Part shown: positions 2,070-64,000 of the stretch, one piece after another | How positions within the stretch are numbered: position 1 is the stretch's first letter | How the letters are laid out: each line of letters begins with the position of its first letter | NCBI GenBank assembly: GCA_026770705.1 | Contig: JANJGN010000052.1 | Coordinates: forward strand, 3,720,001 to 3,784,000 | Length of the DNA: 64,000 bases | From: Isurus oxyrinchus | Lineage: Eukaryota | Reading direction: 5' to 3' | Made by a program: the position numbers and the translations under genes | The notes under the pieces: model-generated | What the model saw: only the letters and a program-made list of their open reading frames with translations | Databases searched by the model: none | Told to the model about the DNA's origin: nothing

Positions 2070-3780
2070 ACTCCCTATCTCTGTAACCTCCTCCAGCCCG
2101 TACAACCCTCCCTATCTCTGTAACCTCCTCCAGCCCCTACAACCCTCCCTATCTCTGTAACGTCCACCAGGCCTTACAACCCTCCCTATCTCTGTAACCT
2201 CCTCCAGCCCCTACACCCCTCCCTATCTCTGTAACCTCCTCCAGCCCCTACAACCCTCCCTATCTCTGTAACCTCCTCCAGCCCCTACAACCCTCCCTAT
2301 CTCTGTAACCTCCTCCAGCCCATACAACCCTCCCTATCTCTGTAACCTCCTCCAGCCCCTACAACCCTCCCTATCTCTGTAACCTCCACCAGGCCTTACA
2401 ACCCTCCCTATCTCTGTAACCTCCTCCAGCCCCTACACCCCTCCCTATCTCTGTAACCTCCTCCAGCCCCTACAACCCTCCCTATCTCTGTAACTTCCTC
2501 CAGCCCCTACAACCCTCCCTATCTCTGTAACCTCCTCCAGCCCGTACAACCCTCCCTATCTCTGTAACCTCCTCCAGCCCCTACAACCCTCCCTATCTCT
2601 GTAACCTCCTCCAGCCCCTACAACCCTCCCTATCTCTGTAACATCCTCCAGCCCCTACAACAATCCCTATCTCTGTAACATCCTACAGTCTCTACAACCC
2701 TCCCTATCTCTGTAACCTCCTCCAGTCCCTATAACCCTCCCTATCTCTGTAACCTCCTCCAGACCCGACAACCCTCCCTATCTATGTAACCTCCTACAGT
2801 CCCCACAACACTCCCTATCTCTGTAACCTCCCCCAGGCCCCACAACCCTCACGATCACTGTAACCTCCTCCAGATCCTACAACCCTCCCTATCTCTGTAA
2901 CCTCCTCCAGCACCTACAACCCTACCTATCTCTGTAACCTCCCCCAGGCCCCACAACCCTCATGATCACTGTAACCTCCTCTAGACCCTACAACCCTCCC
3001 TATCTCTGTAACCTGCTCCAGACCCTACAACCCTCCCTATCTCTGTAACCTCCTCCAGACCCTACAACCCTCCCTATCTCTGTAACCTCCTCCAGGCCCC
3101 ACGACCCTCAGAATCACTGTAACCTCCTCCAGCCCCTACAATGCTCATGAAATCTATAACGTCCTCTCCACACTATAACTCTCCCTATCTCTGTAACCTA
3201 CTGTGGCCCCTACAACAGTATCTATTTTGGTAACCTCCTCCAGCCTCTACAACCCTCCCTACCTCTGTAACCTCCTCCAGCCCCCACAACCCCCCCATCT
3301 CTTTAACCTCCTACAGCCCCTATTCACCTCCCTATCTCTGTAACCTCCTCCAGGCCCTACAACCCTCCCTATCTCTGTAACCTCCTCCAGGCCCCACGAC
3401 CCTCAGAATCACTGTAACCTCCTCCAGCCCCTACAATGCTCATGAACTCTATAACGTCCTCTCCACACTATAACTCTCCCTATCTCTGTAACCTACTGTG
3501 GCCCCTACAACAGTATCTATTTTGGTAACCTCCTCCAGCCTCTACAACCCTCCCTACCTCTGTAACCTCCTCCAGCCCCCACAACCCCCCCATCTCTTTA
3601 ACCTCCTACAGCCCCTACTCACCTCCCTATCTCTGTAACCTCCTACAGCCCCTACAACCCTCCCTATCTCTGTAACCTCCTGCAGCCTCTAGAACCCTCC
3701 CTATCTCTGTTATCTCCTACAGCCTCTACAACCCTCCCTATCTCTGTAACCTCCTCCAGCCGGAACAACCCTACCTAAAT
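2070..3780 (+). repeat. 37-bp minisatellite (ccctccctatctctgtaacctcctccagcccctacaa)n
   Basis: Dozens of visible tandem units; period 37 (tacaacc at 2101 and 2138). Confidence 0.95.
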
Positions 3781-3784
3781 CTCT

Positions 3785-4430
3785 GGTCTGAGTCTCACTC
3801 CAGGGAATTCAGTCCCATAACGTCGGTCAACACTCCGTGCTGAGGGAGTGCTGCACTGTCAGAGGGTCAGTAGTGTGGAAGTGTTGCACTATTGGAGGGA
3901 CAGTACTGAGTGAGTGCTATACTGTCGGAGGTCAGTACTGAGGAAGTGCTGCATTGTTACAGGGTCAGTACTGTGGAAGTGTTGCACTGTCGGAGGGTCA
4001 GTACTGAGGTAGCGCTGCACTGACGGAGGGACAGTACTGAGGGAGCGCAGCACTATCGAAGGGTTAATACTAAGGGAGTGCTGCAGTGCCAAAGGGTTAG
4101 TACTGAGGGAGCACAACAATGTTGAATGAGACATTAAACTGAGTCCCCCGTCTGCCCTCTCGGGCGGGTGTGAAAGATCCCACAGCCACTATTTGGAGGA
4201 AGAGCAGGGGGTGCTCTCCCCGGTGTCCTGGGACCAATATTTATCCCTCACCCAACATCACCAAAAACAGATGATCTAGGCCATGATCACATTGCTATTT
4301 GTGGGATCTTGCTGTGCACAAATCAGCTGCCACATTTCCTACAGTGTGAGTGCACTTCAAAAACATCCTTCAGTGGCTGTGAAATGCTTTGGGATGTGGT
4401 GAAAGGCGTTAGAGAAATGCAAGTCTGTCC
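3785..4430 (+). mobile_element. DeuSINE (SacSINE1/AmnSINE1-like) with internally amplified 33-bp unit
   Basis: 33-bp repeats run into gatgagacattaaactgag...atttatccctca...cacattgct.tttgtgggatcttgctgtgc...agaaatgcaagt, recognised from memory as the DeuSINE body and tail. Confidence 0.7.
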
Positions 4431-4525
4431 TCCTCCCCCTCTCTCTCCTGTACCTCTCTCTCTCTCTCTCCCTCTCCCTCAATCCTCCTCTCACTTTCTC
4501 CCTGATAAATTCTTTCTTTTTGCAG

Positions 4526-4582
4526 GTTGACACTGCTTTAGGTTCTTCGACGATTGAGAAATCTGTGGATTCCCCGGACACG
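4526..4582 (+). CDS. Candidate 57-nt phase-0/0 exon (VDTALGSSTIEKSVDSPDT), possible propeptide exon 2
   Basis: Strong acceptor ttctttctttttgcag and donor ACG|gtaggt; only frame 0 is open. Mirror copy at 62497-62553 (-). Confidence 0.45.
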
Positions 4583-4839
4583 GTAGGTGGAAATTCATTC
4601 CTTATTTTAAGGTTTCTCCCTGCTCGTTTCTTCCACAGAAAGTTTTCTGATTTCAAGCTGATTTCAGTGGCAGTCTGTCTCGGTTATACTCAGGAGGCAT
4701 GTTTGAAATCGAGCCCCCCCCACCCCCCCCCCTTTTTTTGCAAAGCTGGGAAGAGGCAATTCCAAGGAAGTGAACATATCCCCACAGGAATTTTAAATGT
4801 AACCCACGCCGGGAATAGTGAGAGGGAGACTGATCCAGC

Positions 4840-5280
4840 CTGGGAGTGGGTTAAAGAGAGGCTGGGAGTCGAGAGTCGGAGAGAGGGATGGAATGGGGGA
4901 GGGAGGGATTGGAAGAGAGAGACAGAGAGTGGGACGGGGAGGGGTGAAAGGGAAAGAACATAGGTGGGAGAGAGTGACAGAGGGAGAAATTAAAGAAGAG
5001 ATGCAGAGTGAGGGAAAGTGAAAAGGGAAGAGAGATTGTCCAAGAGAGAGAAATTAACAGGGAAGGGAGAGTTACAGAGTGAGCGAAAGGTACAAAAATA
5101 GTGTGAGAGAGAGGGAGAGATACAGAGTGGGAGAAGGAGACAGGGGAGAGAGAGGGAGAGAGACAGGAAAAGGGAGAGAGGAGAGAAAGATTGGGAGAGA
5201 GGGCAATTGAGAGGAAGAGTAGGAGAGAGAGAGACAGGGAGAGGAGGAGTGGAAGAGAGGAAGAGAGAGAGAGATATGGA
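4840..5280. repeat. Purine-rich low-complexity tract
   Basis: GA-rich degenerate sequence; mirror at ~61800-62230. Confidence 0.8.
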
Positions 5281-5860
5281 GCAGGAGAACACCTCCTCCG
5301 GTCCCGATGTTCCTCCAAAATCTCTGACATTACTGCATCTCCCGGGTCCCCCTGATTCCCATCGCTCCACCATTGGGGGCCGTGCCTTCAGCTGCCTGGG
5401 GCCCTGAGCTCCGGAATACCCTCCCTTAACCTCTCTGCCTCTCTCTCTCTCTCTCCTTTAAGACGCTCCTTAAAAACTGACATCTTTGACCAAGCTTTTG
5501 GTCACCTATCCCTAATATCTCCATATGTGACTCAGTGTTAGACTTCTCTCTGATTTACGCTCCGGTAATGTGGGCTGGGACATTTTGCAATGTCAGAGGC
5601 GCTGTGTAAATGCAAGTTGTGAGTGTTATGTGGAAGGGAGACCCCAGGCGGCAGTCAGTGCCAGAGACTGGAGTCATTGTGCGCAGACCGTATCTAATCT
5701 CTCCGAATGCACAATCGGTTTGACTGTCAGCCAAAGCACTTTTGATATTTGATCCTTCTAACTGTTTATAACCAGGCCTACATCATACACCGTGAGGCTG
5801 GTTAATCAACAGACACCTTAGAGGATCGAGTGAAAGACAAAGAGGACTTGCATTTCTCTA

Positions 5861-6009
5861 TAAAAACAAAGAAAACTGCGGATGCTGGAAATCCAAAACA
5901 AAAACAGAATTACCTGAAAAAACTCAGCAGGTCTGGCAGCATCGGCAGAGAAGAAAAGAGTTGACGTTTCGAGTCCTCAGAAGGGTCATGAGGACTCGAA
6001 ACGTCAACT
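5861..6009. mobile_element. Short Penelope-terminus insertion with inverted end and 14-bp target-site duplication
   Basis: Flanked by cttgcatttctcta at 5847-5860 and 6010-6023; 23-bp perfect inverted repeat at 5957-5979 / 5989-6011; same family as the Penelope end at 20930-21025. Confidence 0.7.
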
Positions 6010-6284
6010 CTTGCATTTCTCTAGCGCCTTCCAACACATCAGGACGTCCCAAACTGTTTCGCAGACAATCAAGTGCTTTTTTTCTTTCATGTGAGGTCAC
6101 TGATGTACTGTGGGAAAAGAATCAGCCATTGGCGCACTGTAAGATCCCACAGACAGCAGCATGATAATGACCAGCGCGCTCCCAGTACTTGCACTGCAAG
6201 TGTCAGTTCAGGGTGTGTGCTCGATTCTCTGCAACTCTCAGCTCTGAGTTAAAAGGACCACCAGGCGTAATTGAGAAATTACCG

Positions 6285-6930
6285 AGCTGTCGGAGGGTCA
6301 GTACCGGCGGGGGGGCAGGACAGTCGGAGGGTCAGTACTGAGGGGGTGCTGCATTGTCAGACGGTCAGTCTTGGAGTGCTGCACTGTCAGAGGGTCAGTA
6401 CCGGCGGGGGACTGCACAGTCGGAGGGTCAGTACTGAGGGGGTGCTGCACTGTTGGAGGGTCAGTACTGAGGGGGTGCTGCATTGTCAGACGGTCAGTAC
6501 TGAGGGAGTGCTGCACAGTCGGAGGGTCAGTACTGAGGGGGTGCTGCACTGTTGAAGGCGCTGTCTTTCAGATGAGATGTTAAACTGAGACAACATCTGC
6601 CCTCTCAGATGGATGTAGAGGATTCCATGGCCACAATTTAAATGAAGTGCGTCAGGAGTTGGGTGTATGTGTGGAGGGGGTGGTGGGGGGTGGATGGGAT
6701 GCAGTTATGTCTGCTTTCCTGGGGCAAACATTTATCCCTCAACTGACATTGGTAAAAAACTGAAAATGGGGCCATTATCACATTTCTGTTTGTGGGATCT
6801 TGCTGTGCGTGAATTGCCTGCTGCGTTTCCTACATTACAGCGGTGAGCTCACTTCAGAAAAAGTCCTTCCTTCAGCTGTGGAACACTTTGGGCCATCCTG
6901 AGGAGGGGAAAGGCGCTAGAGAAATGCGCC
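6285..6930 (+). mobile_element. DeuSINE copy with 33-bp minisatellite expansion
   Basis: 33-bp units at 6285-6555, then ctttcagatgagatgttaaactgag...gaaatgc tail. Confidence 0.7.
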
Positions 6931-7434
6931 ATCCTCCTTCCAATGACGCGCCTGATTGAAAGGATGCCTTCTTTCTTTCCGGAATGTTCTCACCTATTGT
7001 GCTCCTGCTTTTCCAGGGCTCCTTGCTGCAGCGCCAGAAGAGAATGGGCAGACAGCAGCTCTGCAGATTCTGCTGTAACTGCTGTAATTGGAGAGAACCA
7101 AATGAGACTTGTGGTCTCTGCTGTAGATATTAGACCCTGGCCTCATTCACGCAAGGTCATCCTGCACCATGCCACAGCCTCTCCCCTCCTTATCTACTGC
7201 TTAGCAATCTACTTAACACAGGCCCTGTTCATTAATTCCAACTGAAACTTTACCTGCGTTTTACAGCAGGGAAAGAAGCCATTCGGCCCATCTGTTCCAT
7301 GCTGGAGTTTCTGCTCCACACGAGTCTCCGCCCACCCCTTCTCCATCTCACCCCATCACCATATCCTTCTATTCATTTCTCCCTCGTGTGTTTATCCAGC
7401 TTCCCCTTAAATACATCGACACTATTCACCTCAC

Positions 7435-7830
7435 GTGACTGTGTTTGTGTCTGTCTTTATGAGCGTGTGTGTGTGACTGTCAATATGTGTGTGTCAATGT
7501 GAATGTGTGTGATTGTGTCAGCGTGTGTGTGTGTATGTGTGACTGTCAGTGCGTGTCAATGTGAATGTGTGTGATTGTGTCAGCGTGTGTGTGTGTGTGT
7601 GTATGTGTGTGTGTGACTGTGTCAGTGTGTGTCAATGTGAATGAGTGAGTGTGTCAGTGTGTCTGTGTGGGTGTGTGTGACTGTGTCAGTGTGTGTCAAT
7701 GTGAATGAGTGAGTGTGTCAGTGTGTCTGTGTGGGTGTGTGTGACTGTGTCAGTGTGTGTCAATGTGAATGAGTGAGTGTGTCAGTGTGTCTGTGTGGGT
7801 GTGGGTGTGTGAGTGTGCAAGTGAATGTGT
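7435..7830. repeat. (GT)n-rich compound microsatellite with higher-order duplication
   Basis: GT runs with repeated gtcaatgtgaatgagtgagt blocks; mirror ~59285-59680. Confidence 0.9.
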
Positions 7831-9669
7831 GAGGAATCTTATGACTAAGTCATTTGAATGGATGTTACTGGGGTTAATGATAGTTAAAATTCAGAGAGAT
7901 GTAAAGCGGGCTCCTGATTTTGCTGCTTTATGCTCCCGGGCACAGATTCACCCCGACAATGTGTTCATGATTCACCATTATCTTGTCGGGACTTTAATTG
8001 TAAATATTGTGCTTTGTAAAAAAAAATGAATAAACAACTTTTGTCTTCACAAAGAGTCTGGCTTGGTATTTCAGGCTACTTGTCTCCCCCTCACCCTCCC
8101 CCCCCCACCATGCCCCCCACACCAGGGAACAATTGTCCCCCCTTCCTCTGAAGTTCTGGGTAAAGATCAGCTTTGTTCAATGCAAGCTGTTCCGACATCG
8201 AGAACGTTGTTACAAATATCACACAAAGGCCACACGCCATGATAGCCCACTTTCAACAGATTTTACCAGTTGACCAGGTTGAAAACCTTTTCATAAACCA
8301 CAACGTAGGTGTTCAATTCTTGCTGCTGTTTGCTTAATGCTCTCATAACTGCTATAACCTCTCTAGTTCCACTACATAACAACACAAACATAAATAAACA
8401 GAAGCAGGAGTAGGCCTTTTGGCCTCCCAAGCCAGCTTGTCCATTCAATTTGAACCTGGCTCCTGCTGAAAGTTATTTAAGTTGAAGCGATAAAGCCATC
8501 AGGTGCAGGGATTAAAATGTAAGCAAAGGAAAAATAATACTTAGAGATGAGATTTAAAATCAGTTTCTGTGAAGAATCATACTGAGGCCATTGCTCTGGA
8601 TTCCTTCTTTCCAGAGTGAAGGGTTTAAAACTAGGAGTCACATTCAGCAGCTGCGTTGTCTTCTCTAGTTGACTATTTGGAGGTTGCCTGTAGATGTGAA
8701 TCAGCAGGTCAGCAGCTTTGGGGAGTCAGTGAAGGTCCCTTTTATTTACAGGATCTGCCACAGGGTGTGCAGGAATATTCCTGCTGAATTCTCCATCCTT
8801 GCATTCATGAAGGGTTTGAAACTGGAAGTCATATTCAGCAGCTGCAATGGCCTCTGTAGCCAACTGTCTGGAGGTTGCCTGTACAGGTGGACTCAGCAGG
8901 TCAACAGCTTTGTAGGGTGGGGGACATGGGTAGTGAAGGTCCCTTTACTTTAAAGGCTCTGCCAGTGCAACACTTGATGATCCTGGGTCAAAATCATGTA
9001 TCACCCTCCCCAACAGCACTGTGGATGTGCCCTATGGAGGTTCCTTGGCTTCGACAAGCAGCCGACCAGCTCTGCTCTCAATTCCTCTTCACACTTGCTT
9101 CCTTCCTCCTCTGGTCTTTACTTTGTTATAGTGTTAGTGTCCGCTCTGCCTTTTTTGTTGCTTTCCCAATTCTTCCCACCAACTCTCTCTGGCTTGATCC
9201 TTCTCTGTGCTCATCTCATTGGTTTGGGTTTCTATCCGTTCATTGACCTGGTATAATCTGAAACTGGTGCAATCAGGTAGGGGTGGGGGGGTTGGCGCTG
9301 GCCGTGGGTGGTGATACACGGCTACCTTTTTACCAAAATTCTTTCACGGGATGTGGACAGCGTTTGTTACCTGTTCCTGACTGACCCCTTGAGAAGGGGG
9401 TGCTGAGCTGCCTTTTCGAAGTGCTGCAGTTCACCTGGTTTGACTGGGCTGTGGCGGGTTTTGATATAACTCAGTGGCTTGCTCGGCCATTTCAGGGGCC
9501 AGTTAAGAGTCAACCACATTGCTGTGGTTCAGGCGTCACACGTAGGCCAGAATGGGTAAGGACGGCAGGTTTCCTTCCCCAAAGGGCATTAGTGACCCAG
9601 ATGGGTTTTTGCAACAATTGGCCTTAGTTTCATGGTCACCATTACTGAGACTAGCTTCGCATTCCAGAT

Positions 9670-11630
9670 GTCACATCCAGTCGTGGACAATTAAACAACT
9701 CACTGTAGGAGGAGGCTCCACAAATATCCCCATCCTCAATGATGGAGGAGCCCAGCACATCGGTGCAAAAGACAAGACTGAAGCATGCGCAATAATCTTC
9801 AGCCAGAAGTGCTGAGTGGCTGATCCATCTCGGCCTCCTCCTGAGGTCCCCAGCATCAGAGATGCCAATCTTTAGCCAATTCGATTAATTCCACGTGACA
9901 TCAAGAAAGGGCTGAAGGCACTGGATATTGCAAAGGCTCCAGGCCCTGACAATATTCTGGCAATAGTACTGAAGACTTGTGCTCCAGAACTTGCTGCGCC
10001 CCTAGCCAAGCTTTTCTGGAATTTTCTAGTACAGCTGCAACACTGGCAACTACCCGGCTATGGGGTACGTCCTGTACACAAAAAGCAGGACAAATCCAAC
10101 CCAGCCAATTCCCCAGCAGTCTATTCTTGATCATTACTAAAGTGATGGAAGGGGTCATCAACAGCGCTTGCAAGCAGCACCTGCTTACCAAGAACCTGCT
10201 CACTGACGCTCAGTTTGTGTTCCACCAGGATCATTCAGCTCCTGGCCTCATTACAGCCTTGGTTCAAACATGCACAAATGAGCTGAACTCCAGAGGTGAG
10301 GTGAGAGTGACTGTCCTTGACATCAAGGCAGCATTTGACTGAGTGTGGCAAATCAAGGAGCCCTAGCAAAACTGGAGTCAATGGGAATCGGGGGAAAACT
10401 CTCCGCTGTTTGGAGTCATACTTAGCACAAAGGATGATGGTTGTGATTGTTGGGGGTCAATCATCTCAGTTCCAGGACATCACTGCAGGAGTTCCAGGGT
10501 AGTGTCCTAGGCTCAACCATCTTCAGCTGCTTCATCAATGTCCTTCCTTCCATCATAAGGTCAGAAGTGGGGATATTTGCTGATGTTTGCACAATGTTCA
10601 GCACCATTCACGGCTCCTCAGATACTGAAGCAAGTTATGTCCAAATGCAGCAAGACCTGGACAACATCCAGGCTTGGGCTGACAGGTGACAAGTAACATT
10701 CATGCCACACAAGTGCCAGGCAATGACCAGCTCCAACAAGAGAGAATCTAACTGAAGGCGCAGAAAATTTGGATTTATTTTAAAGAGCCAGCCAGGACCA
10801 GCAGCTAGGGTGCCAAAGCGTACACATCCTTACGTGAAAGCTAAAAACCTGTACAAAGGGCTCAGCTGTAAATTTGCAATGAGGAAATGGGAGACACACA
10901 CACAAGGACACAGGGTGACTCAATCAAGAAATGGGGAAGGTTATTTCACACCGTCCGATGGCCTTGAACCACATCCAGTCAGCCTCCGGAAACCTTTTGT
11001 ATCGAACAAACATAGATTCTTTGCTGTCTCAAAAGGACAATAGCCAGTCTCTGCCCTGTAATTACTGTACAAGAACACAATTATCAGCCCACCGGAGGGT
11101 CATTGTGCTGTGGCCTTTGTCTAACTAATACCATTACCTTGTAACTGAGAGTAAAAAATATATAAACTGTGCTCATTTGAACCTCGGTGGAGAAGCACCT
11201 GTACTGCCCAGCGTTTGCTCCCCACATGCCTAATAAAGGAACCACTTGAATATTGCATCTGGAGTCCGAGTGTTGAAATTTTGTACCAGAGTATCCCACA
11301 GACCATTCATAACCATCGCCCCTTGGCATTCAATGGCATTACCATCAATGAATCCCCCAATATCAACATCCTGGGAGTTACCATTGAGCAGAAACTGAAC
11401 TGGACCAGCCATATAAACACTGTGGCTGCAAGAGCAGGTCAGAGGCTGGGAACCCTGCAGACAGTAACTCACCTCCTGACTCCCCAAATCCTGTCCACCA
11501 TCTACAACGCACAAGTCAGGAGTGTGATGGAATACTCTCCACATGCCTGGATGAGCACAGCTCCAACAACACTCAAGAAGCTTGACACCATCCAGGACAA
11601 AGCAGCCCGATTGATTGGCTCCCCTTCCAC
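9670..11630 (+). mobile_element. Decayed non-LTR retrotransposon RT region (CR1/L2/Jockey group), interrupted by a solo LTR
   Basis: RT motifs K(V)MEGVIN, LDIKAAFD, QGSVLGSTIF, IFAD, ILGVTIEQKLNW, YNAQVRSVMEY, with stops and frameshifts. Confidence 0.9.
10753..11309 (+). mobile_element. Solo LTR (557 bp)
   Basis: TGAA...TTCA termini; 4-bp TSD TAAC (10749-10752, 11310-11313); internal TATATAAA (~11159) and AATAAA (~11232); the LINE resumes seamlessly across it. Confidence 0.85.
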
Positions 11631-13119
11631 AGAGCTAGATAGATTCTTGATTAACAAGGGGGTGAAAGGTCATTGGGGGTAGGCAGGAATGTGAGGTTGA
11701 GGTGACAATCAGATCAGCCATGATCTTACTGAATGGCGGAGCAGGTTCGAGGGGCTGAGTGACCTACTCCTGATCCTAACTCAGATATCCATATGTTCTC
11801 AAAGGCAAATGGGGATGGGCAACAAATACTGGCCTAGTCAGCGACACCAACATCCCTGAAATGAATAAGAAAAAAATGTATCAATCAATTAAATTTATTG
11901 ATTAATCGAATTGAAATTCCTCCAGCTGCCGTGGTGGGATTTGAACCCGTGCCTTCAAAGCATTCACCTGGGCCTCTGGATCACTGGCCTAGTGCCATTC
12001 CCATTGTGCGACTGTCTGCTATCATCATGGCTCTTTCACATCGATGTGGAAGTCCTGATAACAGAAGCATTGGACGAGGTACAGGAAGGTGACAAATCAG
12101 GAGCTCCATTGCTCAATATGAACGGATAATAAAGATAAATGAACATAAACCTTCCAGTCGCTAATTAGGGAGTCACTGTGGAGCCCATGAGTCCCTCGCA
12201 GCGCTATTGCAACCTTCTGGATCCCCAGTAGGGGACTCGGGGTGCAGCTGTGTCTTCCTCATCATTTGGAAAAGCCGGAATTGTTCGGGTGCCCCTTCAA
12301 ACAGGCCGAAGATGCAGTGGGTGATGTCTCCCACAGGCCCTGGGAGACCTCCCCTGCCAATTTGTTTTGTAGCTTATTCTTCAACTGCGACATTGGATCA
12401 GCTTGAAAAAGGGTGGGGCTGAGGCAATACCACCAGGTAAGCTTCTAACCCCTCCCACTTCACCCCCCCACCCCCGTAACCATCACAGACCCTCCCATCG
12501 TGCTGGAGGAGCATAATGTGCACATTCCCCTCCTTCCAATCAGTCTCCTCCCTTCCTCTCTAATCCTTGATCTTATTGTGTTCGGGGTTGACATGCCAGT
12601 CCTCCTCCCTAGACTGTCTGATGTTGACATCCCAATGCCCCATGTAGACCTGACCTCTCTCCAACTAGAGGCCCATTGTACTGTGACTTACAGAGACCAC
12701 CGGCCCCCCTCTTTTCCACCCCCACCCCTACCCTCTATATTACCTGCTCCCCATTGACTGGCTGCAGATGCCTCCCCTGACTGGGATTGTGCCACCTGCG
12801 GCCTAGTATCAAGCCACCCACCCCCAGGACCGACGTGTGTGAGCGACTGACCAAGTCCTGCACACCATGCTGGGCACCACCAACCCAGGACTGCCAGGCT
12901 GTCCCCACCACACTGGACTGGGACTAGAATAGGCATGCCAAGCACAGCTCTCTAAATCGTGGCGCAGACCCACAGCACTCGCAATGTTTTGTGGCCCGAA
13001 TCCTTGCTGAGGAACTGCCCAGCACTAAAAGCAAAAAAACTGCGGATGCTGGAAATCCAAAACAGAAACAGAAACAGAAATACCTGGAAAAACTCAGCAG
13101 GTCTGGCAGCATCGGCGGA

Positions 13120-13510
13120 GAAGTACTGAGGTAGTGCAGCACTGTCGGAGGTTCAGTACTGAGGGAGTGCTGCACTGTCAGAGGGTCTGAGCTGAGGGAG
13201 TGCTGCACTGTCGGAGGCTCTGAGCTGAGGGAGTGCTGCACTGTTGGAGGGTTTGAACTGAGGGAGAGCTGCACTGTCGGAGGGTTTGAACTGAGGGAGT
13301 GCTGCACTGTCGGATGGTTTGAACTGAGAGAGTGCTGCACTGTCGGAGGTTCTGAACTGAGGGAGTGCTGCACTGTCTGAGGGTTTGAACTGAGGGAGTG
13401 CTGCATTGTTGGAGGGTCTGATCTGAAGGAGTGCTGCACTGTAGGAGGGTCTGAACTGAGGGAGTGCTGCGCTGTTGGAGGGTCAGTACTGTGGGAGTGC
13501 TGCGCTGTCT
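13120..13510 (+). repeat. 33-bp minisatellite, preceded by a Penelope terminus (13025-13122)
   Basis: gagggagtgctgcactgtcggagggtttgaact units; mirror at 53645-53995. Confidence 0.9.
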
Positions 13511-19056: not shown

Positions 19057-19135
19057 CTTGGGAAAGTGACAAGAGGAAGTAGATTTCCCGATCATCGTCC
19101 ACTCCCAGATATTCCATCCACTTCTCACTCTCAAG
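19057..19135 (-). pseudogene. Siglec-like gene L: leader exon with 1-nt deletion
   Basis: ATG at 19095; coding part 39 nt versus 40 nt in the intact copy (TCCTAC to TCTAC), so the leader is frameshifted. Confidence 0.88.
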
Positions 19136-51181: not shown

Positions 51182-52770
51182 GTAAGTACAGACACCTTTC
51201 ATTCTACATCAGCACTCCCTCAGCGCTGACCCTCTGACAGTGCAGCCTGTTCTCAGTGTCCACATTCTCAGACCTCTCAAAGTGCTTCACAGTCGATAGA
51301 AGTTAACTGATCTTTATTTGATTGTTGCTGAATGAAGGGACAAGCTGTCTAAACTTTACATCTCACACACATTATTTTCCATGGCAACACCTCCTCCAAT
51401 CAGAGACCACTTGCTGATTAACCAGCACTCTCTTCCCTTTAAATATAAATTGTTGTTCACTTTCTGTTGGTAAACCTGCAATCTGTCTTGTTGAGTCCGG
51501 TCCTGACATCTGAATATCACAATGAACAGAACAAGTTCCAACAATGAGCTGTGGTTGGTGATTCCTCACGTTACATCCAGGGACACTGGAGACTATCAGT
51601 GTGCTCAGAGAATGAACATGGAGCAGTGGAGGGGTTCATAACCATCACTGTGGAACGTTAGTTAAGACAAACTTCAACATCTCTCTCAGATTGAAACACT
51701 ACAAAAACACACATAAATATCCAGCCTTAAATAGACACCTGCAGACACACAATCCCACATCTATGAGCACACACAAAGACACACTCACAAACAAACACAC
51801 TAGCACATACTCCCCTGTGGATTACCTGACCTCCCTCAGTGCTGCACCGGAGAGTTGACCTGGATTCTGGGATTTGTGTTCCCTTTCATATTTATGGAAG
51901 AATATGGAAATTGCAAAGTCTATTACAGACACTCAGATGCACAGAGATACTCACAGATACTCTCTGCCTCTCCAACTCTCTATCCTCCTTTAAGAAGCTT
52001 CCTGAAATCTAACTCTTTGACCAGTCACCTGTCCCAATTCCTCCTTACGTGATTTTGTGTGAAATTTTGTTTGAGTATCTGAGAGTAAGAGGGAAGTGGA
52101 GAGGTTTAGGAAGGGAATTCCTGTTGCTGAAAAGCTTACATCATGTTCTCAGCTTTCCAGTGCCCATTTTTCACATGACGTCCATGTTCATAATGGGGAT
52201 TGCCTATGTAAACGTCACGCTGTAGTTACTCTCTCCCACCAGTGGTAGCACGGTAACACTTAACCCTTGCATCTCCAAGCTTTACAAGCAATTTCACTTC
52301 CTAATTTGCTACTATTCACCTCAACCATTCCCTGTGGGAGCGAGTTCCACATTCTCCCCTCTCTCTGGGTAAAGATTGGAACTGTTTATTAAGCGGGGTG
52401 TGTAAGTCCGTGGGGGAGTCCATCTCGATCCTGCCCGATTCGCACACGCGTCCGAGATGGATTTCCACCCTGCACTAAACGTTTCCAGAATTTTCTACAG
52501 CACAATCCTGTACACAGCGATGGAGAGAAACATTGGACAGAGAGTCCAACAGCACAATGATCCATTCTCACCAATGTTCCACGCTAAGGGGAAAGTTCCG
52601 ATTGTCCACTCTTAGAGTGTTTACAGTGAAAACATTCATTCCACATTGAATCCCAGTGGATGGGTCAATATTACAGCAAATGTTGCAGTGATATGAAGCT
52701 TGATTGTTCAGCCAGAGTGAGAGATTGAAAGCGGAGAGTCAGTGATGATTTCTTTCTGTGTGTTCTCTAG

Positions 52771-52898
52771 ACAGTGGAGGAGAGATTCTGCACGTGATCC
52801 TGATCCTGGGAATACGAGCTGTGATATTCCTTGTGGCTGTGGTTATCACTATCGCTGGAGTCTGTGTCTGGGAGAGACAAACAGTGAAAGGAAGTTGA
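52771..52898 (+). CDS. Siglec-like gene R: TM plus short-tail terminal exon with intramembrane Arg
   Basis: Acceptor tttctttctgtgtgttctctag; phase 1 (D)SGGEILHVILILGIRAVIFLVAVVITIAGVCVWERQTVKGS*; Arg codon 52815-52817. Confidence 0.9.
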
Positions 52899-53174
52899 CA
52901 GACTGTTTGAAGCTTTGTACAGCAACAATCTGGTCAGTCAGTGCGGACAAATAACGTGTGATGTTGTGTTAAGTTGTAATGAAACTGGTCAGTGTCCTGG
53001 TTAGAATCATCTCCGTATCATCGAGTCATTCCAGCAATGGAGGAGGACATTTGGCCCATTGAGTCTATGCTGTCTCTCTGTAAAGCAATCCACTCAGTCC
53101 CATCCCCCGCTCTAACCCCGTATCCCTGCAAATTTATTTCCAATTTCCGTCCAATTTCCTTTTGAAATTGTTCA

Positions 53175-56100
53175 TCGAATAGGAATGAACAGAAATGTGA
53201 CGTCGCTAAACTCTGTTCTCTGATTAGAATGAGCTTTCTGAATGCTGCACCTTTTTCATGCTGCGACAGATTGTAAGAAGCATTTGGCTTATGAATAAAA
53301 TTACATTGATTAACTCAAGTGATTAAAATGCTCAGCCTGTTCTGTAGATATTTAAAGATTAAAATTCTTGTTTTGCTGCAAAATACTTGGCTCAAAGACA
53401 TTACTTCCTGTTGTCACGTTTTCCAATCAGATGAATTCCTCTGTCCATCTTTATAATAGAAATTTCCAATGTAAACATGTCACATTGTAGCTGCACACAC
53501 TTGCCAGTGGCTGGTGTGATATCAAAGCTGTCTTGCTGCAGAGAAACAGCGAGAAATATTCCTGTTGTGTGCATGAACTTCATGTTAGCATGAGACACAG
53601 GCATCAGATGAAATTTTGTGCAATTTGTACAATGTTCTTTAGACAGCACAGCACTCCCTCAGTTCAAACCCTCCAACAGCGCAGCACTCCCTCAGATCAG
53701 ACCCTCCGACAGTGCAGCACTTCCTCAGTTCAAACCCTCCGACAGTGCAGCTCTCCCTCAGTTCATACCCTCCGACAGTGCAGCACTCCCTCAGTTCAAA
53801 CCCTCCGACAGTGCAGCACTCCCTCATTTCAGAGCCTCCGACAGTGCAGCACTCCCTCAGTTCAGAGCCTCCGAAAGTGCAGCATTCCCTCAGTTCAGAC
53901 CCTCTGACAGTGCAACACTCCCTCAGCTCAGACCCTCCGACAGTGCAGCACTCCCTCAGTACTGAACCTCCGACAGTGCCGCACTCCCTCAGTTCTTCTC
54001 TGCCGATGCTGCCAGACCTGCTGAGTTTTTCCAGGTATTTCTGTTTCTGTTTTGAATTTCCAGCATCCGCAGTTTTTTTGCTTTTAGTGCTGGGCAGTTC
54101 CTCAGCAAGGATTCGGGCCACAAAACATTGCGAGTGCTGTGGGTCTGCGCCACGATTTAGAGAGCTGTGCTTGGCACGCCTATTCTAGTCCCAGTCCAGT
54201 GTGGTGGGGAGAGCCTGGCAGTCCTGGGTTGGTGGTGCCCAGCATGGTGTGAGTGACGTGGTCAGTCCCTCACACACGTCCATCCTGGGGGTGGGTGGCT
54301 TGATACTAGGCCGCAGGTGGCACAATCCCAGTCAGGGGAGGCATCTGCAGCCGGTCAATGGGGAGCAGGTAATATAGAGGGTAGGGGTGGGGGTGGAAAA
54401 GAGGGGGGCCGGTGGTCTCTGTAAGTCACAGTACAATGGGCCTCTAGTTGGAGAGAGGTCAGGTCTACATGGGGCATTGGGATGTCAACATCAGACAGTC
54501 TAGGGAGGAGGACTGGGATGTCAACCCCGAACACAATAAGATCAAGGATTAGAGAGGAAGGGAGGAGACTGATTGGAAGGAGGGGAATGTGCACATTATG
54601 CTCCTCCAGCACGATGGGAGGGACTGTGATGGTTACGGGGGTGGGGGGGGGGTGACGTGTGAGGGGATAGACGCTTACCTGGTGGTATTGCCTCAGCCCC
54701 ACCCTTTTTCAAGCTGATCCAATGTCGCAGTTGAAGAATAAGCTACAAAACAAATTGGCAGGGGAGGTCTCCCAGGGCCTGTGGGAGACATCACCCACTG
54801 CATCTTCGGCCTGTTTGAAGGGGCACCCGAACAATTCCGGCTTTTCCAAATGATGAGGAAGACACAGCTGCACCCCGAGTCCCCTACTGGGGATCCAGAA
54901 GGTTGCAATAGCGCTGCGAGGGACTCATGGGCTCCACAGTGACTCCCTAATTAGCGACTGGAAGGTTTATGTTCATTTATCTTTATTATCCGTTCATATT
55001 GAGCAATGGAGCTCCTGATTTGTCACCTTCCTGTACCTCGTCCAATGCTTCTGTTATCAGGACTTCCACATCGATGTGAAAGAGCCATGATGATAGCAGA
55101 CAGTCGCACAATGGGAATGGCACTAGGCCAGTGATCCAGAGGCCCAGGTGAATGCTTTGAAGGCACGGGTTCAAATCCCACCACGGCAGCTGGAGGAATT
55201 TCAATTCGATTAATCAATAAATTTAATTGATTGATACATTTTTTTCTTATTCATTTCAGGGATGTTGGTGTCGCTGACTAGGCCAGTATTTGTTGCCCAT
55301 CCCCATTTGCCTTTGAGAACATATGGATATCTGAGTTAGGATCAGGAGTAGGTCACTCAGCCCCTCGAACCTGCTCCGCCATTCAGTAAGATCATGGCTG
55401 ATCTGATTGTCACCTCAACCTCACATTCCTGCCTACCCCCAATGACCTTTCACCCCCTTGTTAATCAAGAATCTATCTAGCTCTGTGGAAGGGGAGCCAA
55501 TCAATCGGGCTGCTTTGTCCTGGATGGTGTCAAGCTTCTTGAGTGTTGTTGGAGCTGTGCTCATCCAGGCATGTGGAGAGTATTCCATCACACTCCTGAC
55601 TTGTGCGTTGTAGATGGTGGACAGGATTTGGGGAGTCAGGAGGTGAGTTACTGTCTGCAGGGTTCCCAGCCTCTGACCTGCTCTTGCAGCCACAGTGTTT
55701 ATATGGCTGGTCCAGTTCAGTTTCTGCTCAATGGTAACTCCCAGGCTGTTGATATTGGGGGATTCATTGATGGTAATGCCATTGAATGCCAAGGGGCGAT
55801 GGTTATGAATGGTCTGTGGGATACTCTGGTACAAAATTTCAACACTCGGACTCCAGATGCAATATTCAAGTGGTTCCTTTATTAGGCATGTGGGGAGCAA
55901 ACGCTGGGCAGTACAGGTGCTTCTCCACCGAGGTTCAAATGAGCACAGTTTATATATTTTTTACTCTCAGTTACAAGGTAATGGTATTAGTTAGACAAAG
56001 GCCACAGCACAATGATCCTCCGGTGGGCTGATAATTGTGTTCTTGTACAGTAATTACAGGGCAGAGACTGGCTATTGTCCTTTTGAGACAGCAAAGAATC

Positions 56101-59100
56101 TATGTTTGTTCGATACAAAAGGTTTCCGGAGGCTGACTGGATGTGGTTCAAGGCCATCGGAGGGTGTGAAATAACCTTCCCCATTTCTTGATTGAGTCAC
56201 CCTGTGTCCTTGTGTGTGTGTCTCCCATTTCCTCATTGCAAATTTACAGCTGAGCCCTTTGTACAGGTTTTTAGCTTTCACGTAAGGATGTGTACGCTTT
56301 GGCACCCTAGCTGCTGGTCCTGGCTGGCTCTTTAAAATAAATCCAAATTTTCTGCGCCTTCAGTTAGATTCTCTCTTGTTGGAGCTGGTCATTGCCTGGC
56401 ACTTGTGTGGCATGAATGTTACTTGTCACCTGTCAGCCCAAGCCTGGATGTTGTCCAGGTCTTGCTGCATTTGGACATAACTTGCTTCAGTATCTGAGGA
56501 GCCGTGAATGGTGCTGAACATTGTGCAAACATCAGCAAATATCCCCACTTCTGACCTTATGATGGAAGGAAGGACATTGATGAAGCAGCTGAAGATGGTT
56601 GAGCCTAGGACACTACCCTGGAACTCCTGCAGTGATGTCCTGGAACTGAGATGATTGACCCCCAACAATCACAACCATCATCCTTTGTGCTAAGTATGAC
56701 TCCAAACAGCGGAGAGTTTTCCCCCGATTCCCATTGACTCCAGTTTTGCTAGGGCTCCTTGATTTGCCACACTCAGTCAAATGCTGCCTTGATGTCAAGG
56801 ACAGTCACTCTCACCTCACCTCTGGAGTTCAGCTCATTTGTGCATGTTTGAACCAAGGCTGTAATGAGGCCAGGAGCTGAATGATCCTGGTGGAACACAA
56901 ACTGAGCGTCAGTGAGCAGGTTCTTGGTAAGCAGGTGCTGCTTGCAAGCGCTGTTGATGACCCCTTCCATCACTTTAGTAATGATCAAGAATAGACTGCT
57001 GGGGAATTGGCTGGGTTGGATTTGTCCTGCTTTTTGTGTACAGGACGTACCCCATAGCCGGGTAGTTGCCAGTGTTGCAGCTGTACTAGAAAATTCCAGA
57101 AAAGCTTGGCTAGGGGCGCAGCAAGTTCTGGAGCACAAGTCTTCAGTACTATTGCCAGAATATTGTCAGGGCCTGGAGCCTTTGCAATATCCAGTGCCTT
57201 CAGCCCTTTCTTGATGTCACGTGGAATTAATCGAATTGGCTAAAGATTGGCATCTCTGATGCTGGGGACCTCAGGAGGAGGCCGAGATGGATCAGCCACT
57301 CAGCACTTCTGGCTGAAGATTATTGCGCATGCTTCAGTCTTGTCTTTTGCACCGATGTGCTGGGCTCCTCCATCATTGAGGATGGGGATATTTGTGGAGC
57401 CTCCTCCTACAGTGAGTTGTTTAATTGTCCACGACTGGATGTGACATCTGGAATGCGAAGCTAGTCTCAGTAATGGTGACCATGAAACTAAGGCCAATTG
57501 TTGCAAAAACCCATCTGGGTCACTAATGCCCTTTGGGGAAGGAAACCTGCCGTCCTTACCCATTCTGGCCTACGTGTGACTCCTGACCCACAGCAATGTG
57601 GTTGACTCTTAACTGGCCCCTGAAATGGCCGAGCAAGCCACTGAGTTATATCAAAACCCGCCACAGACCAGTCAAACCAGGTGAACTGCAGCACTTCGAA
57701 AAGGCAGCTCAGCACCCCCTTCTCCAGGGGTCAGTCAGGAACAGGTAACAAACGCTGTCCACATCCCGTGAAAGAATTTTGGTAAAAAGGTAGCCGTGTA
57801 TCACCACCCACGGCCAGCGCCAACCCCCCCACCCCTACCTGATTGCACCAGTTTCAGATGACACCAGGTCAATGAACGGATAGAAACTCAAACCAATGAG
57901 ATGAGCACAGAGAAGGATCAAGCCAGAGAGAGTTGGTGGGAAGAATTGGGAAAGCAACAAAAAAGGCAGAGCGGACACTAACACTATAACAAAGTAAAGA
58001 CCAGAGGAGGAAGGAAGCAAGTGTGAAGAGGAATTGAGAGCAGAGCTGGTCGGCTGCTTGTCGAAGCCAAGGAACCTCCATAGGGCACATCCACAGTGCT
58101 GTTGGGGAGGGTGATACATGATTTTGACCCAGGATCATCAAGTGTTGCACTGGCAAAGCCTTTAAAGTAAAGGGACCTTCACTACCCGTGTCCCCCAGCC
58201 TACAAAGCTGTTGACCTGCTGAGTCCACCTGTACAGGCAACCTCCAGACAGTTGGCTACAGAGGCCATTGCAGCTGCTGAATATGACTTCCAGTTTCAAA
58301 CCCTTCATGAATGCAAGGATGGAGAATTCAGCAGGAATATTCCTGCACACCCTGTGGCAGATCCTGTAAATAAAAGGGACCTTCACTGACTCCCCAAAGC
58401 TGCTGACCTGCTGATTCACATCTACAGGCAACCTCCAAATAGTCAACTAGAGAAGACAACGCAGCTGCTGAATGTGACTCCTAGTTTTAAACCCTTCACT
58501 CTGGAAAGAAGGAATCCAGAGCAATGGCCTCAGTATGATTCTTCACAGAAACTGATTTTAAATCTCATCTCTAAGTATTATTTTTCCTTTGCTTACATTT
58601 TAATCCCTGCACCTGATGGCTTTATCGCTTCAACTTAAATAACTTTCAGCAGGAGCCAGGTTCAAATTGAATGGACAAGCTGGCTTGGGAGGCCAAAAGG
58701 CCTACTCCTGCTTCTGTTTATTTATGTTTGTGTTGTTATGTAGTGGAACTAGAGAGGTTATAGCAGTTATGAGAACATTAAGCAAACAGCAGCAAGAATT
58801 GAACACCTACGTTGTGGTTTATGAAAAGGTTTTCAACCTGGTCAACTGGTAAAATCTGTTGAAAGTGGGCTATCATGGCGTGTGGCCTTTGTGTGATATT
58901 TGTAACAACGTTCTCGATGTCGGAACAGCTTGCATTGAACAAAGCTGATCTTTACCCAGAACTTCAGAGGAAGGGGGGACAATTGTTCCCTGGTGTGGGG
59001 GGCATGGTGGGGGGGGGAGGGTGAGGGGGAGACAAGTAGCCTGAAATACCAAGCCAGACTCTTTGTGAAGACAAAAGTTGTTTATTCATTTTTTTTTACA

Positions 59101-62100
59101 AAGCACAATATTTACAATTAAAGTCCCGACAAGATAATGGTGAATCATGAACACATTGTCGGGGTGAATCTGTGCCCGGGAGCATAAAGCAGCAAAATCA
59201 GGAGCCCGCTTTACATCTCTCTGAATTTTAACTATCATTAACCCCAGTAACATCCATTCAAATGACTTAGTCATAAGATTCCTCACACATTCACTTGCAC
59301 ACTCACACACCCACACCCACACAGACACACTGACACACTCACTCATTCACATTGACACACACTGACACAGTCACACACACCCACACAGACACACTGACAC
59401 ACTCACTCATTCACATTGACACACACTGACACAGTCACACACACCCACACAGACACACTGACACACTCACTCATTCACATTGACACACACTGACACAGTC
59501 ACACACACACATACACACACACACACACACACGCTGACACAATCACACACATTCACATTGACACGCACTGACAGTCACACATACACACACACACGCTGAC
59601 ACAATCACACACATTCACATTGACACACACATATTGACAGTCACACACACACGCTCATAAAGACAGACACAAACACAGTCACGTGAGGTGAATAGTGTCG
59701 ATGTATTTAAGGGGAAGCTGGATAAACACACGAGGGAGAAATGAATAGAAGGATATGGTGATGGGGTGAGATGGAGAAGGGGTGGGCGGAGACTCGTGTG
59801 GAGCAGAAACTCCAGCATGGAACAGATGGGCCGAATGGCTTCTTTCCCTGCTGTAAAACGCAGGTAAAGTTTCAGTTGGAATTAATGAACAGGGCCTGTG
59901 TGAAATAGATTGCTAAGCAGTAGATAAGGAGGGGAGAGGCTGTGGCATGGTGCAGGATGACCTTGAGTGAATGAGGCCAGGGTCTAATATCTACAGCAGA
60001 AACCACAAGTCTCATTTGGTCCTCTCCAATTACAGCAGTGACAGCAGAATCTGCAGAATCTGCCCATTCTCTTCTGGCGCTGCAGCAAGGAGCCCTGGAA
60101 AAGCAGGAGGACAATAGGTGAGAACATTCCGGAAAGAAAGAAGGCATCATTTCAATCAGGCGCGTCATTGGAAGGAGGATGGCGCATTTCTATAGCGCCT
60201 TTCCCCTCCTCAGGATGGCCCAAAGTGTTCCACAGCTGAAGGAAGGACTTTTTCTGAAGTGAGCTCACCGCTGTAATGTAGGAAACGCAGCAGGCAATTC
60301 ACGCACAGCAAGATCCCACAAACAGAAATGTGATAATGGCCCCGATTTTCAGTTTTTTACCAATGTCAGTTGAGGGATAAATGTTTGCCCCAGGAAAGTG
60401 GACATAACTCCACCCCATCCACCCCCCATCACCCCCTCAACACATACCCCCTACTCCTGACGCACTTCATTTAAATTGTGGTCATGGAATCCTCTACATC
60501 CATCTGAGAGGGCAGATGTTGTCTCAGTTTAACATCTCATCTGAAAGACAGCGCCTTCAACAGTGCAGCACCCCCTCAGTACTGACCCTCCGACTGTGCA
60601 GCACTCCCTCAGTACTGACCGTCTGACAATGCAGCACCCCCTCAGTACTGACCCTCCGACTGTGCAGTCCCCCGCCGGGACTGACCCTCTGACAGTGCAG
60701 CACTCCAAGACTGACCGTCTGACAATGCAGCACCCCCTCAGTACTGACCCTCCGACTGTCCTGCCCCCCCGCCGGTACTGACCCTCCGACAGCTCGGTAA
60801 TTTCTCAATTACGCCTGGTGGTCCTTTTAACTCAGAGCTGAGAGTTGCAGAGAATCGAGCACACACCCTGAACTGACACTTGCAGTGCAAGTACTGGGAG
60901 CGCGCTGGTCATTATCATGCTGCTGTCTGTGGGATCTTACAGTGCGCCAATGGCTGATTCTTTTCCCACAGTACATCAGTGACCTCACATGAAAGAAAAA
61001 AAGCACTTGATTGTCTGCGAAACAGTTTGGGACGTCCTGATGTGTTGGAAGGCGCTAGAGAAATGCAAGAGTTGACGTTTCGAGTCCTCATGACCCTTCT
61101 GAGGACTCGAAACGTCAACTCTTTTCTTCTCTGCCGATGCTGCCAGACCTGCTGAGTTTTTTCAGGTAATTCTGTTTTTGTTTTGGATTTCCAGCATCCG
61201 CAGTTTTCTTTGTTTTTATAGAGAAATGAAAGTCCTCTTTGTCTTTCACTCGATCCTCTAAGGTGTCTGTTGATTAACCAGCCTCACGGTGTATGATGTA
61301 GGCCTGGTTATAAACAGTTAGAAGGATCAAATATCAAAAATGCTTTGGCTGACAGTCAAACCGATTGTGCATTCGGAGAGATTAGATACGGTCTGCACAC
61401 AATGACTCCAGTCTCTGGCACTGACTGCCGCCTGGGGTCTCCCTTCCACATAACACTCACAACTTGCATTTACACAGCGCCTCTGACATTGCAAAATGTC
61501 CCAGCCCACATTACCGGAGCGTAAATCAGAGAGAAGTCTAACACTGAGTCACATATGGAGATATTAGGGATAGGTGACCAAAAGCTTGGTCAAAGATGTC
61601 AGTTTTTAAGGAGCGTCTTAAAGGAGAGAGAGAGAGAGAGGCAGAGAGGTTAAGGGAGGGTATTCCGGAGCTCAGGGCCCCAGGCAGCTGAAGGCACGGC
61701 CACCAATGGTGGAGCGATGGGAATCAGGGGGACCCGGGAGATGCAGGAATTTCAGAGATTTTGGAGGAACATCGGGACCGGAGGAGGTGTTCTCCTGCTC
61801 CATATCTCTCTCTCTCTTCCTCTCATCCACTCCTCCTCTCCCTGTCTCTCTCTCTCTCCTACTCTTCCTCTCAATTGCCCTCTCTCCCAATCTTTCTCTC
61901 CTCTCTCCCTTTTCCTGTCTCTCCCCCTCTCTCTCTCCCCTGTCTCATTCTCCCACTCTGTATCTCTCCCTCTCTCTCACACTATTTTTGTACCTTTCGC
62001 TCACTCTGTAACTCTCCCTTTCCTGTTAATTTCTCTCTCTTGGACAATCTCTCTTCCTTTTTCACTTTCCCTCACTCTGCATCTCTTCATTAATATCTCC

Positions 62101-64000
62101 CTCTGTCACTCTCTCCCACCTATGTTCTTTCCCTTTCACCCCTCCCCGTCCCACTCTCTGTCTCTCTCTTCCAATCCCTCCCTCCCCCATTCCATCCCTC
62201 TCTCCGACTCTCGACTCCCAGCCTCTCTTTAACCCACTCCCAGGCTGGATCAGTCTCCCTCTCACTATTCCCGGCGTGGGTTACATTTAAAATTCCTGTG
62301 GGGATATGTTCACTTCCTTGGAATTGCCTCTTCCCAGCTTTGCAAAAAAAGTGGGGGCGGGGGGTCTTGATTTCAAACATGCCTCCTGAGTATAACCGAG
62401 ACAGACTGCCACTGAAATCAGCTTGAAATCAGAAAACTTTCTGTGGAAGAAACGAGCAGGGAGAAACCTTAAAATAAGGAATGAATTTCCACCTACCGTG
62501 TCCGGGGAATCCACAGATTTCTCAATCGTCGAAGAACCTAAAGCAGTGTCAACCTGCAAAAAGAAAGAATTTATCAGGGAGAAAGTGAGAGGAGGATTGA
62601 GGGAGAGGGAGAGAGAGAGAGAGAGGTACAGGAGAGAGAGGGGGAGGAGGACAGACTTGCATTTCTCTAACGCCTTTCACCACATCCCAAAGCATTTCAC
62701 AGCCACTGAAGGATGTTTTTGAAGTGCACTCACACTGTAGGAAATGTGGCAGCTGATTTGTGCACAGCAAGATCCCACAAATAGCAATGTGATCATGGCC
62801 TAGATCATCTGTTTTTGGTGATGTTGGTTGAGGGATAAATATTGGTCCCAGGACACCGGGGAGAGCACCCCCTGCTCTTCCTCCAAATAGTGGCTGTGGG
62901 ATCTTTCACACCCGCCCGAGAGGGCAGACGGGGGACTCGGTTTAATGTCTCATTCAACATTGTTGTGCTCCCTCAGTACTAACCCTTTGACACTGCAGCA
63001 CTCCCTTAGTATTAACACTTCGATAGTGCTGCGCTCCCTCAGTACTGTCCCTCCGTCAGTGCAGCTCTATTTCAGTACTAACCCTTCCACACAGCAGCAC
63101 TCCCTCAGTACTGACCTCCGACAGTATAGCACTCCGTCAGTACTGTCCCTCCAATAGTGCAACACTTCCACACTACTGACCCTCTGAGAGTGCAGCACTC
63201 CCTCAGCACGGAGTGTTGATCTACATTATGGGACTGAATTCCCTGGAGTGAGTCTCAGACCAGTGATTTAGGTAGGGTTGTGGGGGCTGGAGGAGGTTAC
63301 AGAGATAGGGAGGGCTGTAGAGGCTGTAGGAGGTTACAGAGAAAGGGAGGGTTGTAAGGGCTGTAGGAAGTTACAGAGATAGGGAGGGTTGTAGAGGCTG
63401 TAGGAGGTTACAGAGATAGGGAGGGTTGTAGGGGCTGGAGGAGGTTACAGAAATAGGGAGGGCTGTAGAGGCTGTAGGAGTTTACAGAGATAGGGAGGGT
63501 TGTAAGGGCTGTAGGAAGTTACAGAGATAGGGAGGGTTGTAGAGGCTGTAGGAGGTTACAGAGATGGGGGAGTTGTGGGGGTTGGAGGAGGTTACAGAGG
63601 TAGGGAGGTGTGTAGGGGCTGTAGGAGGTTACAGAGATGGGGTGGTTGTGGGGGCTGGAGGAGGTTACAGATGTAGGGAGGGTTGTAGAGGCTGGAGGAG
63701 TTTACCAAAATAGACACTGCTGTAGGGGCCACAGTAGGTTACAGAGATAGGGAGAGTTATAGTGTGGAGAGGAGGTTATAGAGTTCAGGAGGATTGTAGG
63801 GGCTGGAGGAGGTTACAGTGATTGTGAGGGTTGTGGGGCCTGGAGGACTTTACAGAGATAGGGAGGGTTGTAGGGTCTGGAGCAGGTTACAGAGATAGGG
63901 AGGGTTGTAGGGTCTGGAGCAGGTTACAGAGATAGGGAGGGTTGTAGGGTCTGGAGGAGGTTACAGTGATCATGAGGGTTGTGGGGCCTGGGGGAGGTTA
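53175..64000 (-). repeat. Right high-identity arm of the inverted duplication (runs off the window)
   Basis: Reverse complement of 2935-13975, including the LINE (55485-57445), solo LTR (55806-56362), SINEs and minisatellites (37-bp array 63270-64000). Confidence 0.97.

Follow-up and report, generated by a model that had tools for sequence, protein, structure and literature searches.

Two inverted arms in a Siglec-like array of Isurus oxyrinchus share the similarity steps of their family and probably carry one recent conversion tract

The window analysed here, a stretch of 64,000 nucleotides from the 4.17-Mb contig JANJGN010000052.1 (C52) of Isurus oxyrinchus, holds two Siglec-like genes in mirror-image arms, whose similarity rises and falls in steps. 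Does this layout reflect an old inverted pair that repeated exchange between the arms has kept alike, as an earlier note on this DNA proposed, or does it belong to the gene family as a whole? We favour, with a probability of roughly 0.78, the reading that the arms are two of at least 218 Siglec-like gene-end copies in a multi-megabase array, that their stepped similarity is a family pattern, and that one 5.2-kb stretch was likely overwritten recently, from right to left, by gene conversion.

The inverted arms are borne out by self-BLAST, in which 3046-13976 aligns with 64000-53175 on opposite strands (96.3% over 10,945 columns). The TM block is as near-identical as had been claimed (14517-15138 against 52931-52310, 12 mismatches in 622, 98.1%), while the gene bodies reach 87.5% (15704-17370 against 52312-50634) and 81.7% (17501-18415 against 50651-49730). 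Identity is likewise non-uniform in a sliding comparison of 250-bp bins, with all flank bins from 4001 to 13000 at 96-100% and full gene-body bins at 76.9-96.4%, and the diverged patches noticed at 12440-12480 and 14340-14510 are present at 12443-12489 (five substitutions and a 3-bp indel) and 14360-14516. The extent given for the arms needs revision. Their left end at 2935 is arbitrary because it lies inside a 37-bp minisatellite (2935-3777 at this end), and in 120 kb of neighbouring DNA the mirror similarity passes the window on either side and reaches about -19.5 kb and about 81.5 kb, in colinear blocks of 82-95%. A third copy at 88-101 kb is equally close to either arm in the outer mirror region. 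The features of the window are collected in Table 1.

Table 1. Features of the two arms and their genes (positions within the window).
Feature	Position	Strand	Remarks
37-bp minisatellite	2071-3777		mirror from 63269 past the window edge
Left arm	3790-18617	-	3' flank and body of left Siglec-like gene; unit present in many copies
Tract A	7216-8916		pair-specific; 1 difference in 1266 unmasked sites; mirror about 58199-59901
Patch inside tract	8917-9534		10 differences in 618; mirror about 57581-58198
Tract B, left copy	9535-12442		3 differences in 2908; LINE-like remnant with LTR-like insertion
LTR-like insertion	10753-11309		557 bp; TGAA...TTCA ends, TAAC on both sides; mirror about 55806-56362
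Left gene, TM and short tail	14538-14677	-	Arg in membrane span; no tyrosine motif
Left gene, second C2 exon	16346-16500	-	3' half alone remains
Left gene, first C2 exon	16823-17119	-	open
Left gene, V exon	17978-18354	-	377 nt; broken by stop codons and frameshifts
Left gene, leader	19057-19095	-	39 nt (right gene 40 nt); frame shifted from the usual ATG
Right gene, leader	31330-31369	+	intact
Right gene, V1	39100-39474	+	open; essential Arg replaced by Ser
Tandem units with V2-V5	41277-50473	+	four 2.3-kb units, 95-98% alike
Right gene, V2, V3, V4, V5	42877-43245, 45182-45550, 47489-47854, 49791-50156	+	all open; essential Arg retained
Right arm	49730-63290	+	V5-C2-TM and 3' flank of right gene; mirror extends beyond the window, as far as about 81.5 kb
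Right gene, first C2 exon	50885-51181	+	
Right gene, second C2 exon remnant	51505-51657	+	absent from the joints in RNA contigs of the family
Right gene, TM and tail	52771-52898	+	Arg in membrane span
Tract B, right copy	54673-57580		likely donor

The identification of both genes as Siglec paralogs stands. The 18 top matches of V5 in the PDB are all Siglecs, with Siglec-5 as the best (E 2.9e-14) and CD33 and Siglec-8 also among the best. Pfam assigns V5 to V-set and Ig_CD22 and the following exon to C2-set_2, and the order V-set, C2-set, TM is supported by V-C2-TM joints in RNA contigs of the family. The F-strand essential Arg, kept in V2 to V5 and replaced by Ser in V1, aligns with YFFRVE of Siglec-5, as do all three conserved V-domain cysteines (two near strand B, one in strand E). 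V1 also lacks the extra Cys of the YPSCLEN motif, which V2-V5 keep (39100-50156). V5 is 84-89% identical to great white shark proteins with the automatic NCBI names Siglec-10/12/13, CD33-like and MAG-like. Among annotated elasmobranch proteins, P0021, P0027 and P0032 have nearly the same Arg-bearing anchor after one C2, as found here, and P0002 combines five essential-Arg V motifs with an Arg anchor. All 29 sampled anchors carry Arg in the TM span and the tails of both genes are free of tyrosine, a combination that marks the predicted anchors as activating-Siglec-type (Siglec-14/15/16 type, basic TM residue and no ITIM). Activating Siglecs of mammals couple to the ITAM adaptor DAP12 (PMC13358205).

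The right gene would, to judge from its exons, encode an activating receptor of the order leader-V5-C2-TM, whose membrane Arg is predicted to mediate coupling to an ITAM adaptor. Its first C2 acceptor is AA (AG in 30 of 33 copies) with an in-frame AG 9 nt further on, and its tail ends at a stop that is absent from all 23 other copies, losing the last four residues. The left gene, with a leader one base short and a broken V exon, is probably a pseudogene. The head-to-head layout of the two is confirmed and the left gene is broken; "divergent transcription" is to be read here as gene orientation, since RNA support is at the level of the family rather than the locus. In contigs of four runs that we took to be RNA, V-to-C2 and C2-to-TM joints with the half exon skipped occur in all four, leader-to-V joints in two and V-to-V joints in one, again for the family.

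Following the definitions of paired receptors as outlined in PMC13358205, the two genes are adjacent and head-to-head, with leaders at 19095 (-) and 31330 (+) and a spacer of 12.2 kb between the start codons. They have the same Arg anchor and short tail instead of opposite signalling ends, and their V exons, instead of being near-identical, share 80% identity and place the partner at ranks 33 and 35 of 38. Because of this shared signalling end and the dissimilar V exons, the pair is by its predicted products not of the SIGLEC11/16 or 5/14 type. ITIM-type tails sit in other genes, at -19.5 kb and 81.2 kb, tail-to-tail with each arm. The tail exons in question (L003:515-760 (+) and L006:7204-7449 (-)) mark the outer ends of the mirror, with 28-34 kb between each activating gene of the pair and the inhibitory gene that it faces tail-to-tail. 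On C52, a convergent ITIM exon lies within 45 kb of 13 of the 32 genes with the 3' flank versus two of the 34 without it.

The setting of the pair is an extensive array. Exact 24-mers count 218 copies of the TM and 637 of the V exon genome-wide, and a 27-mer of the ITIM tail counts 86. With regard to diverged copies these figures are minima; if haplotigs remain, they are maxima. Ten of the matching contigs add up to 12.8 Mb. A view of the other contigs as haplotigs of C52 was rejected, as a C52 partner under 0.5% exists for only one of 24 copies on other contigs. C52 itself has 66 TM anchors, 65 of them located by the exact TM motif and one by the TM-block comparison. Their orientations are mixed: of 65 adjacent pairs, 33 are inverted and 17 head-to-head. 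An inverted pair is for this reason the common state in the array. Three V-exon matches at G000:C34:15138163-15186158, on a larger contig, may anchor the array to a chromosome-scale scaffold.

We compared the arms with two samples of the family, tandem repeats being masked: 40 copies that were the top matches to the left arm, a choice biased against the partner looking special, and all remaining C52 anchors, of which the 3' flank was found within 10 kb in 32 of 66 (56 copies altogether). The TM block has at least 40 matches in the genome at 98-100%, and the right arm is absent from the best 40; the partner ranks 6 and 8 of 23. The partner is likewise absent from the best 40 genome matches of segment 4150-5050. 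In ten gene-body segments it ranks between 6 and 35 among 24-38 matches, and each gene has relatives of 95-99% elsewhere. Judged by similarity, the gene bodies of the arms belong to different subfamilies (80-89% alike). The stepped gradient is a family-wide pattern and not specific to the pair, because the gene bodies fall into different subfamilies with closer relatives elsewhere, because the TM block is typical of the family, and because the median divergence in sampled exons is 13.1% for V (33 intact), 2.0% for the first C2 (17) and 2.4% for the TM protein (28). The proposal that the TM side is homogenised here, as a mirror image of the homogenised ectodomain in SIGLEC11/16, is consequently not supported: dozens of distant copies are equally similar and both genes have the same activating-type anchor. 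More generally, identity steps between two copies are uninformative on pair-specific conversion until the remaining family is counted.

One stretch of the arms behaves differently. Across 4792 sites in 7216-12442, a stretch that lies downstream of the genes, the arms show 14 differences (0.29%), against 1.07-1.15% for the next copy and a median of 2.09%, and the arm pair ranks second of 1540 pairs. The mismatches are clustered with a permutation p = 2e-4, which is the floor for 5000 shuffles and refers to tract borders chosen post hoc. The tract contains 13 of the 16 rare alleles shared by the arms, and the allele at 10364 occurs in both arms and in none of 54 other copies. We interpret this tract as the likely result of a recent right-to-left gene conversion. 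Of the conversion or inversion between the arms that the earlier note envisaged, conversion is the best reading of one tract and no signature of inversion was found.

The direction is suggested by the grouping of the copies. The patch at 13976-14516 divides the family into two structural types of 16 copies each, leaving 10 of the 42 unassigned. L034, L033 and L039 are the copies with which both arms group in tract B, while just inside the tract the right arm is nearest to L034, L038 and L015 and the left arm groups with the other structural type. A right-to-left transfer appears probable because both arms are right-type in tract B and the left arm returns to its own type just inside. The nearest third copy for tract A, L014, has a left-type V exon, a misfit for a single right-to-left event. 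It is also possible that a third copy was the donor of tract B, because L034, which lies on another contig, shares most tract-B alleles. Similarly, the adjacency of the arms may be incidental, because comparably good tracts link copies at a great distance from each other (L035/L037, L079/L099, L031/L046). The tract lies at least 1.8 kb beyond the stop codon. A hidden exon within it was considered, but a comparison of 44 frames (36 of 127 listed and 8 others) with Pfam found no family in 1-14300, a search that short exons could escape. The tract itself is likely without coding consequence.

The 557-bp LTR-like insertion in tract B has TG...CA-type ends and a 4-base target-site duplication (TAAC), as a solo LTR should. 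Its left and right copies show exactly the two differences that had been reported, at 10953 and 11099. As a clock for the pair the element was rejected, because the insertion is present in 44 of 56 family copies and both differences are polymorphisms of the family (37/17 and 41/13 among other copies).

These patterns suggest an array that grew by segmental duplication and inversion and in which modules were exchanged by ectopic recombination, mostly between distant copies. The arms of the present pair would have folded back and paired once (or a few times), resolving without crossover, and the 618-bp patch may be patchy repair or a later overwrite. Neighbours are mildly favoured as exchange partners. 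On C52 pairs within 100 kb differ by 1.97% on average (p = 0.014 including the arm pair), and without the left arm the effect has p = 0.063 at 100 kb and p = 0.005 at 130 kb. A general homogenisation of inverted neighbours is not seen, the median being 2.15% for inverted and 2.22% for direct pairs (496 C52 pairs).

This mild effect of proximity is also what a palindrome-like unit might leave, one kept alike by repeated, long-term conversion between the arms with a homogenised TM and 3' side. Such a unit could likewise account for the reciprocal-best tract of 5.2 kb in two pieces, and for the right arm as the best genome match listed for 7850-9500 and, narrowly, for 10500-11560. We nevertheless consider it unlikely. 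Outside the tract the partner is an average relative, with ranks of 28/48 and 16/47 on the outer side (6010-7215) and of 17 and 22 of 32 on the inner side (12443-13975), and arms that exceed 99% and are mutually closest, which a Y-type palindrome has along its length, are found in 7216-12442 only. Furthermore, the other four of the five head-to-head pairs within 100 kb that carry the 3' flank are typical of the family (1.59-2.30%, versus 2.19% for distant pairs), and only five of 32 copies have their nearest sequence relative within 100 kb. What remains of the old, repeatedly homogenised pair of the earlier note is one bounded tract of mutually closest sequence, best read as conversion; the private pair and the repetition are not supported.

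Still less probable, in our view, is a crossover between the arms that flipped the spacer, with the tract as the conversion scar of an inversion that is perhaps still polymorphic. The geometry permits it, the orientations on C52 are thoroughly mixed, and the two sub-tracts have different nearest third copies. However, likeness to the left arm outside the tract does not predict likeness to the right arm inside (rho 0.06, p = 0.70, 42 copies), a test that is weak because the family is fully mosaic, and in a human Y palindrome conversion is frequent and inversion rare (PMC3723533). Finally, we regard it as very unlikely that the tract is an assembly artefact, both arms having been built from reads that belong to a single arm or to two haplotypes of the same locus: a divergence of 0.1% in the sub-tracts (0.1-0.3% in the tract) and hundreds of 98% copies that are hard to assemble would suit it, but no N occurs in 184 kb of sequence surrounding the window, nor in the 1.19 Mb of compared loci, the shared alleles are rare and not the family majority that mis-polishing would impose, the right arm holds three private bases in the tract, and a misjoin of two haplotypes is unlikely because the gene bodies differ by 10-20% and in the number of V exons.

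Gene conversion, the reading we prefer for the tract, may act on exons of the array as well. The synonymous divergence of the first C2 (pS 0.028) points to conversion centred on the exon rather than to purifying selection alone. Positive selection on V was considered and rejected, as the pooled pN/pS of 0.65 (C2 0.60) shows no excess; V exons are intact in 33 of 42 sampled copies. The first C2 exon and its short flanks (16750-17250 and 50754-51253) are 96-98% alike between the subfamilies, with adjacent introns 11-18% different.

Several further elements were observed in and around the arms. Arrays of 2.3-kb V units like those of the right gene occur elsewhere, e.g., at C52:3547540-3554806 and C189:689535-696801. 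The second-type C2 exon keeps its 3' half alone in most sampled activating genes, and a neighbouring gene (L010:1318-9250) has one V, one first C2 and at least eight tandem intact second-type C2 exons. In L058 and L060, two first-C2 exons lie back to back in opposite orientation about 600 bp apart, a small fold-back junction common to two contigs. The outer arm contains a second, distant V-like exon (L005:3616-4002 (-), with copies at window -3760 and 92781 (+)), which has about 32% identity to the main family and 63% to P0036 and seems to end before the essential-Arg strand. The spacer, upstream of both leaders, holds isolated fragments of a third type of tail, the one found in P0037, at 19903-19965, 24519-24650 and 26600-26716 (-) and at 30787-30879 (+). 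Decayed LTR-retrotransposon-like fragments also occupy 27600-30100 (-) and 33700-35600 of the spacer, with a weak aspartyl-protease Pfam match below the cut-off at 29013-29366. A short frame at 1708-1878 (+), which is also present in the right outer arm, has a hydrophobic signal- or anchor-like stretch and plausible splice sites and is without a Pfam match.

The pair itself is ordinary: primates already provide an example of ectopic conversion in a Siglec cluster, and the sole pair-specific tract falls outside coding sequence, beside a pseudogene. The size of the array and its modular shuffling matter more. Tentatively, and at slightly less than even odds, we propose a modular germline repertoire for glycan sensing, spread over contigs of at least 12.8 Mb and comprising at least 218 activating anchors along with 637 V exons and 86 ITIM tails. 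In it, diverse V heads, in one to five tandem copies, would be shuffled among C2 stalks and signalling ends kept uniform by recombination; the pair would be one snapshot of this exchange. Such a repertoire would lie an order of magnitude above the 14 functional human Siglecs (PMC13324755), and a search of annotated elasmobranch proteins gave 107 Siglec-like proteins over many species versus 637 V exons in the present genome. In the literature searched, mostly outside subscription journals and supplements with their possible gene-family tables, we found no paper on a shark Siglec array; PMC8455134 mentions Siglecs once, within a list. With its hundreds of Siglec-like genes, in which diverse heads are joined to uniform constant modules, the array offers a direct test, in an early-branching jawed vertebrate, of how the ligand-binding domains of activating and inhibitory receptors are retained or exchanged.

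Among known systems, the primate pair SIGLEC11/SIGLEC16, head-to-head and about 9 kb apart according to PMC5701461, is similar in its closely spaced Siglec genes (12.2 kb here), in stepped identity from kilobase-scale conversion, and in that one partner can be a pseudogene. According to that paper, what is converted there is the upstream region together with the first exons, the V domain among them; the conversion joins an inhibitory with an activating gene and is shown in several species (PMC5701461). The shark pair, by contrast, has the same activating-type anchor twice, V exons 80% alike and hundreds of alternative donors, and its tract lies past the stop codon instead of in the upstream and V region. 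The human Y palindrome P6 is reported to have conversion tracts with a mean of about 2 kb and a maximum over 9 kb, and arms above 99.9% throughout (PMC3723533). Inverted arms and multi-kilobase tracts (1.7 and 2.9 kb) are shared with the shark pair, which reaches 99.7-99.9% in the tract only and is not a closed pair. Birth-and-death clusters of paired receptors, such as LILR/KIR, the chicken CHIR and the fish NITR, likewise combine many activating and inhibitory copies with pseudogenes and exchange of modules. The shark array differs from these in its ligand-binding head, which is a Siglec V-set in one to five tandem copies.
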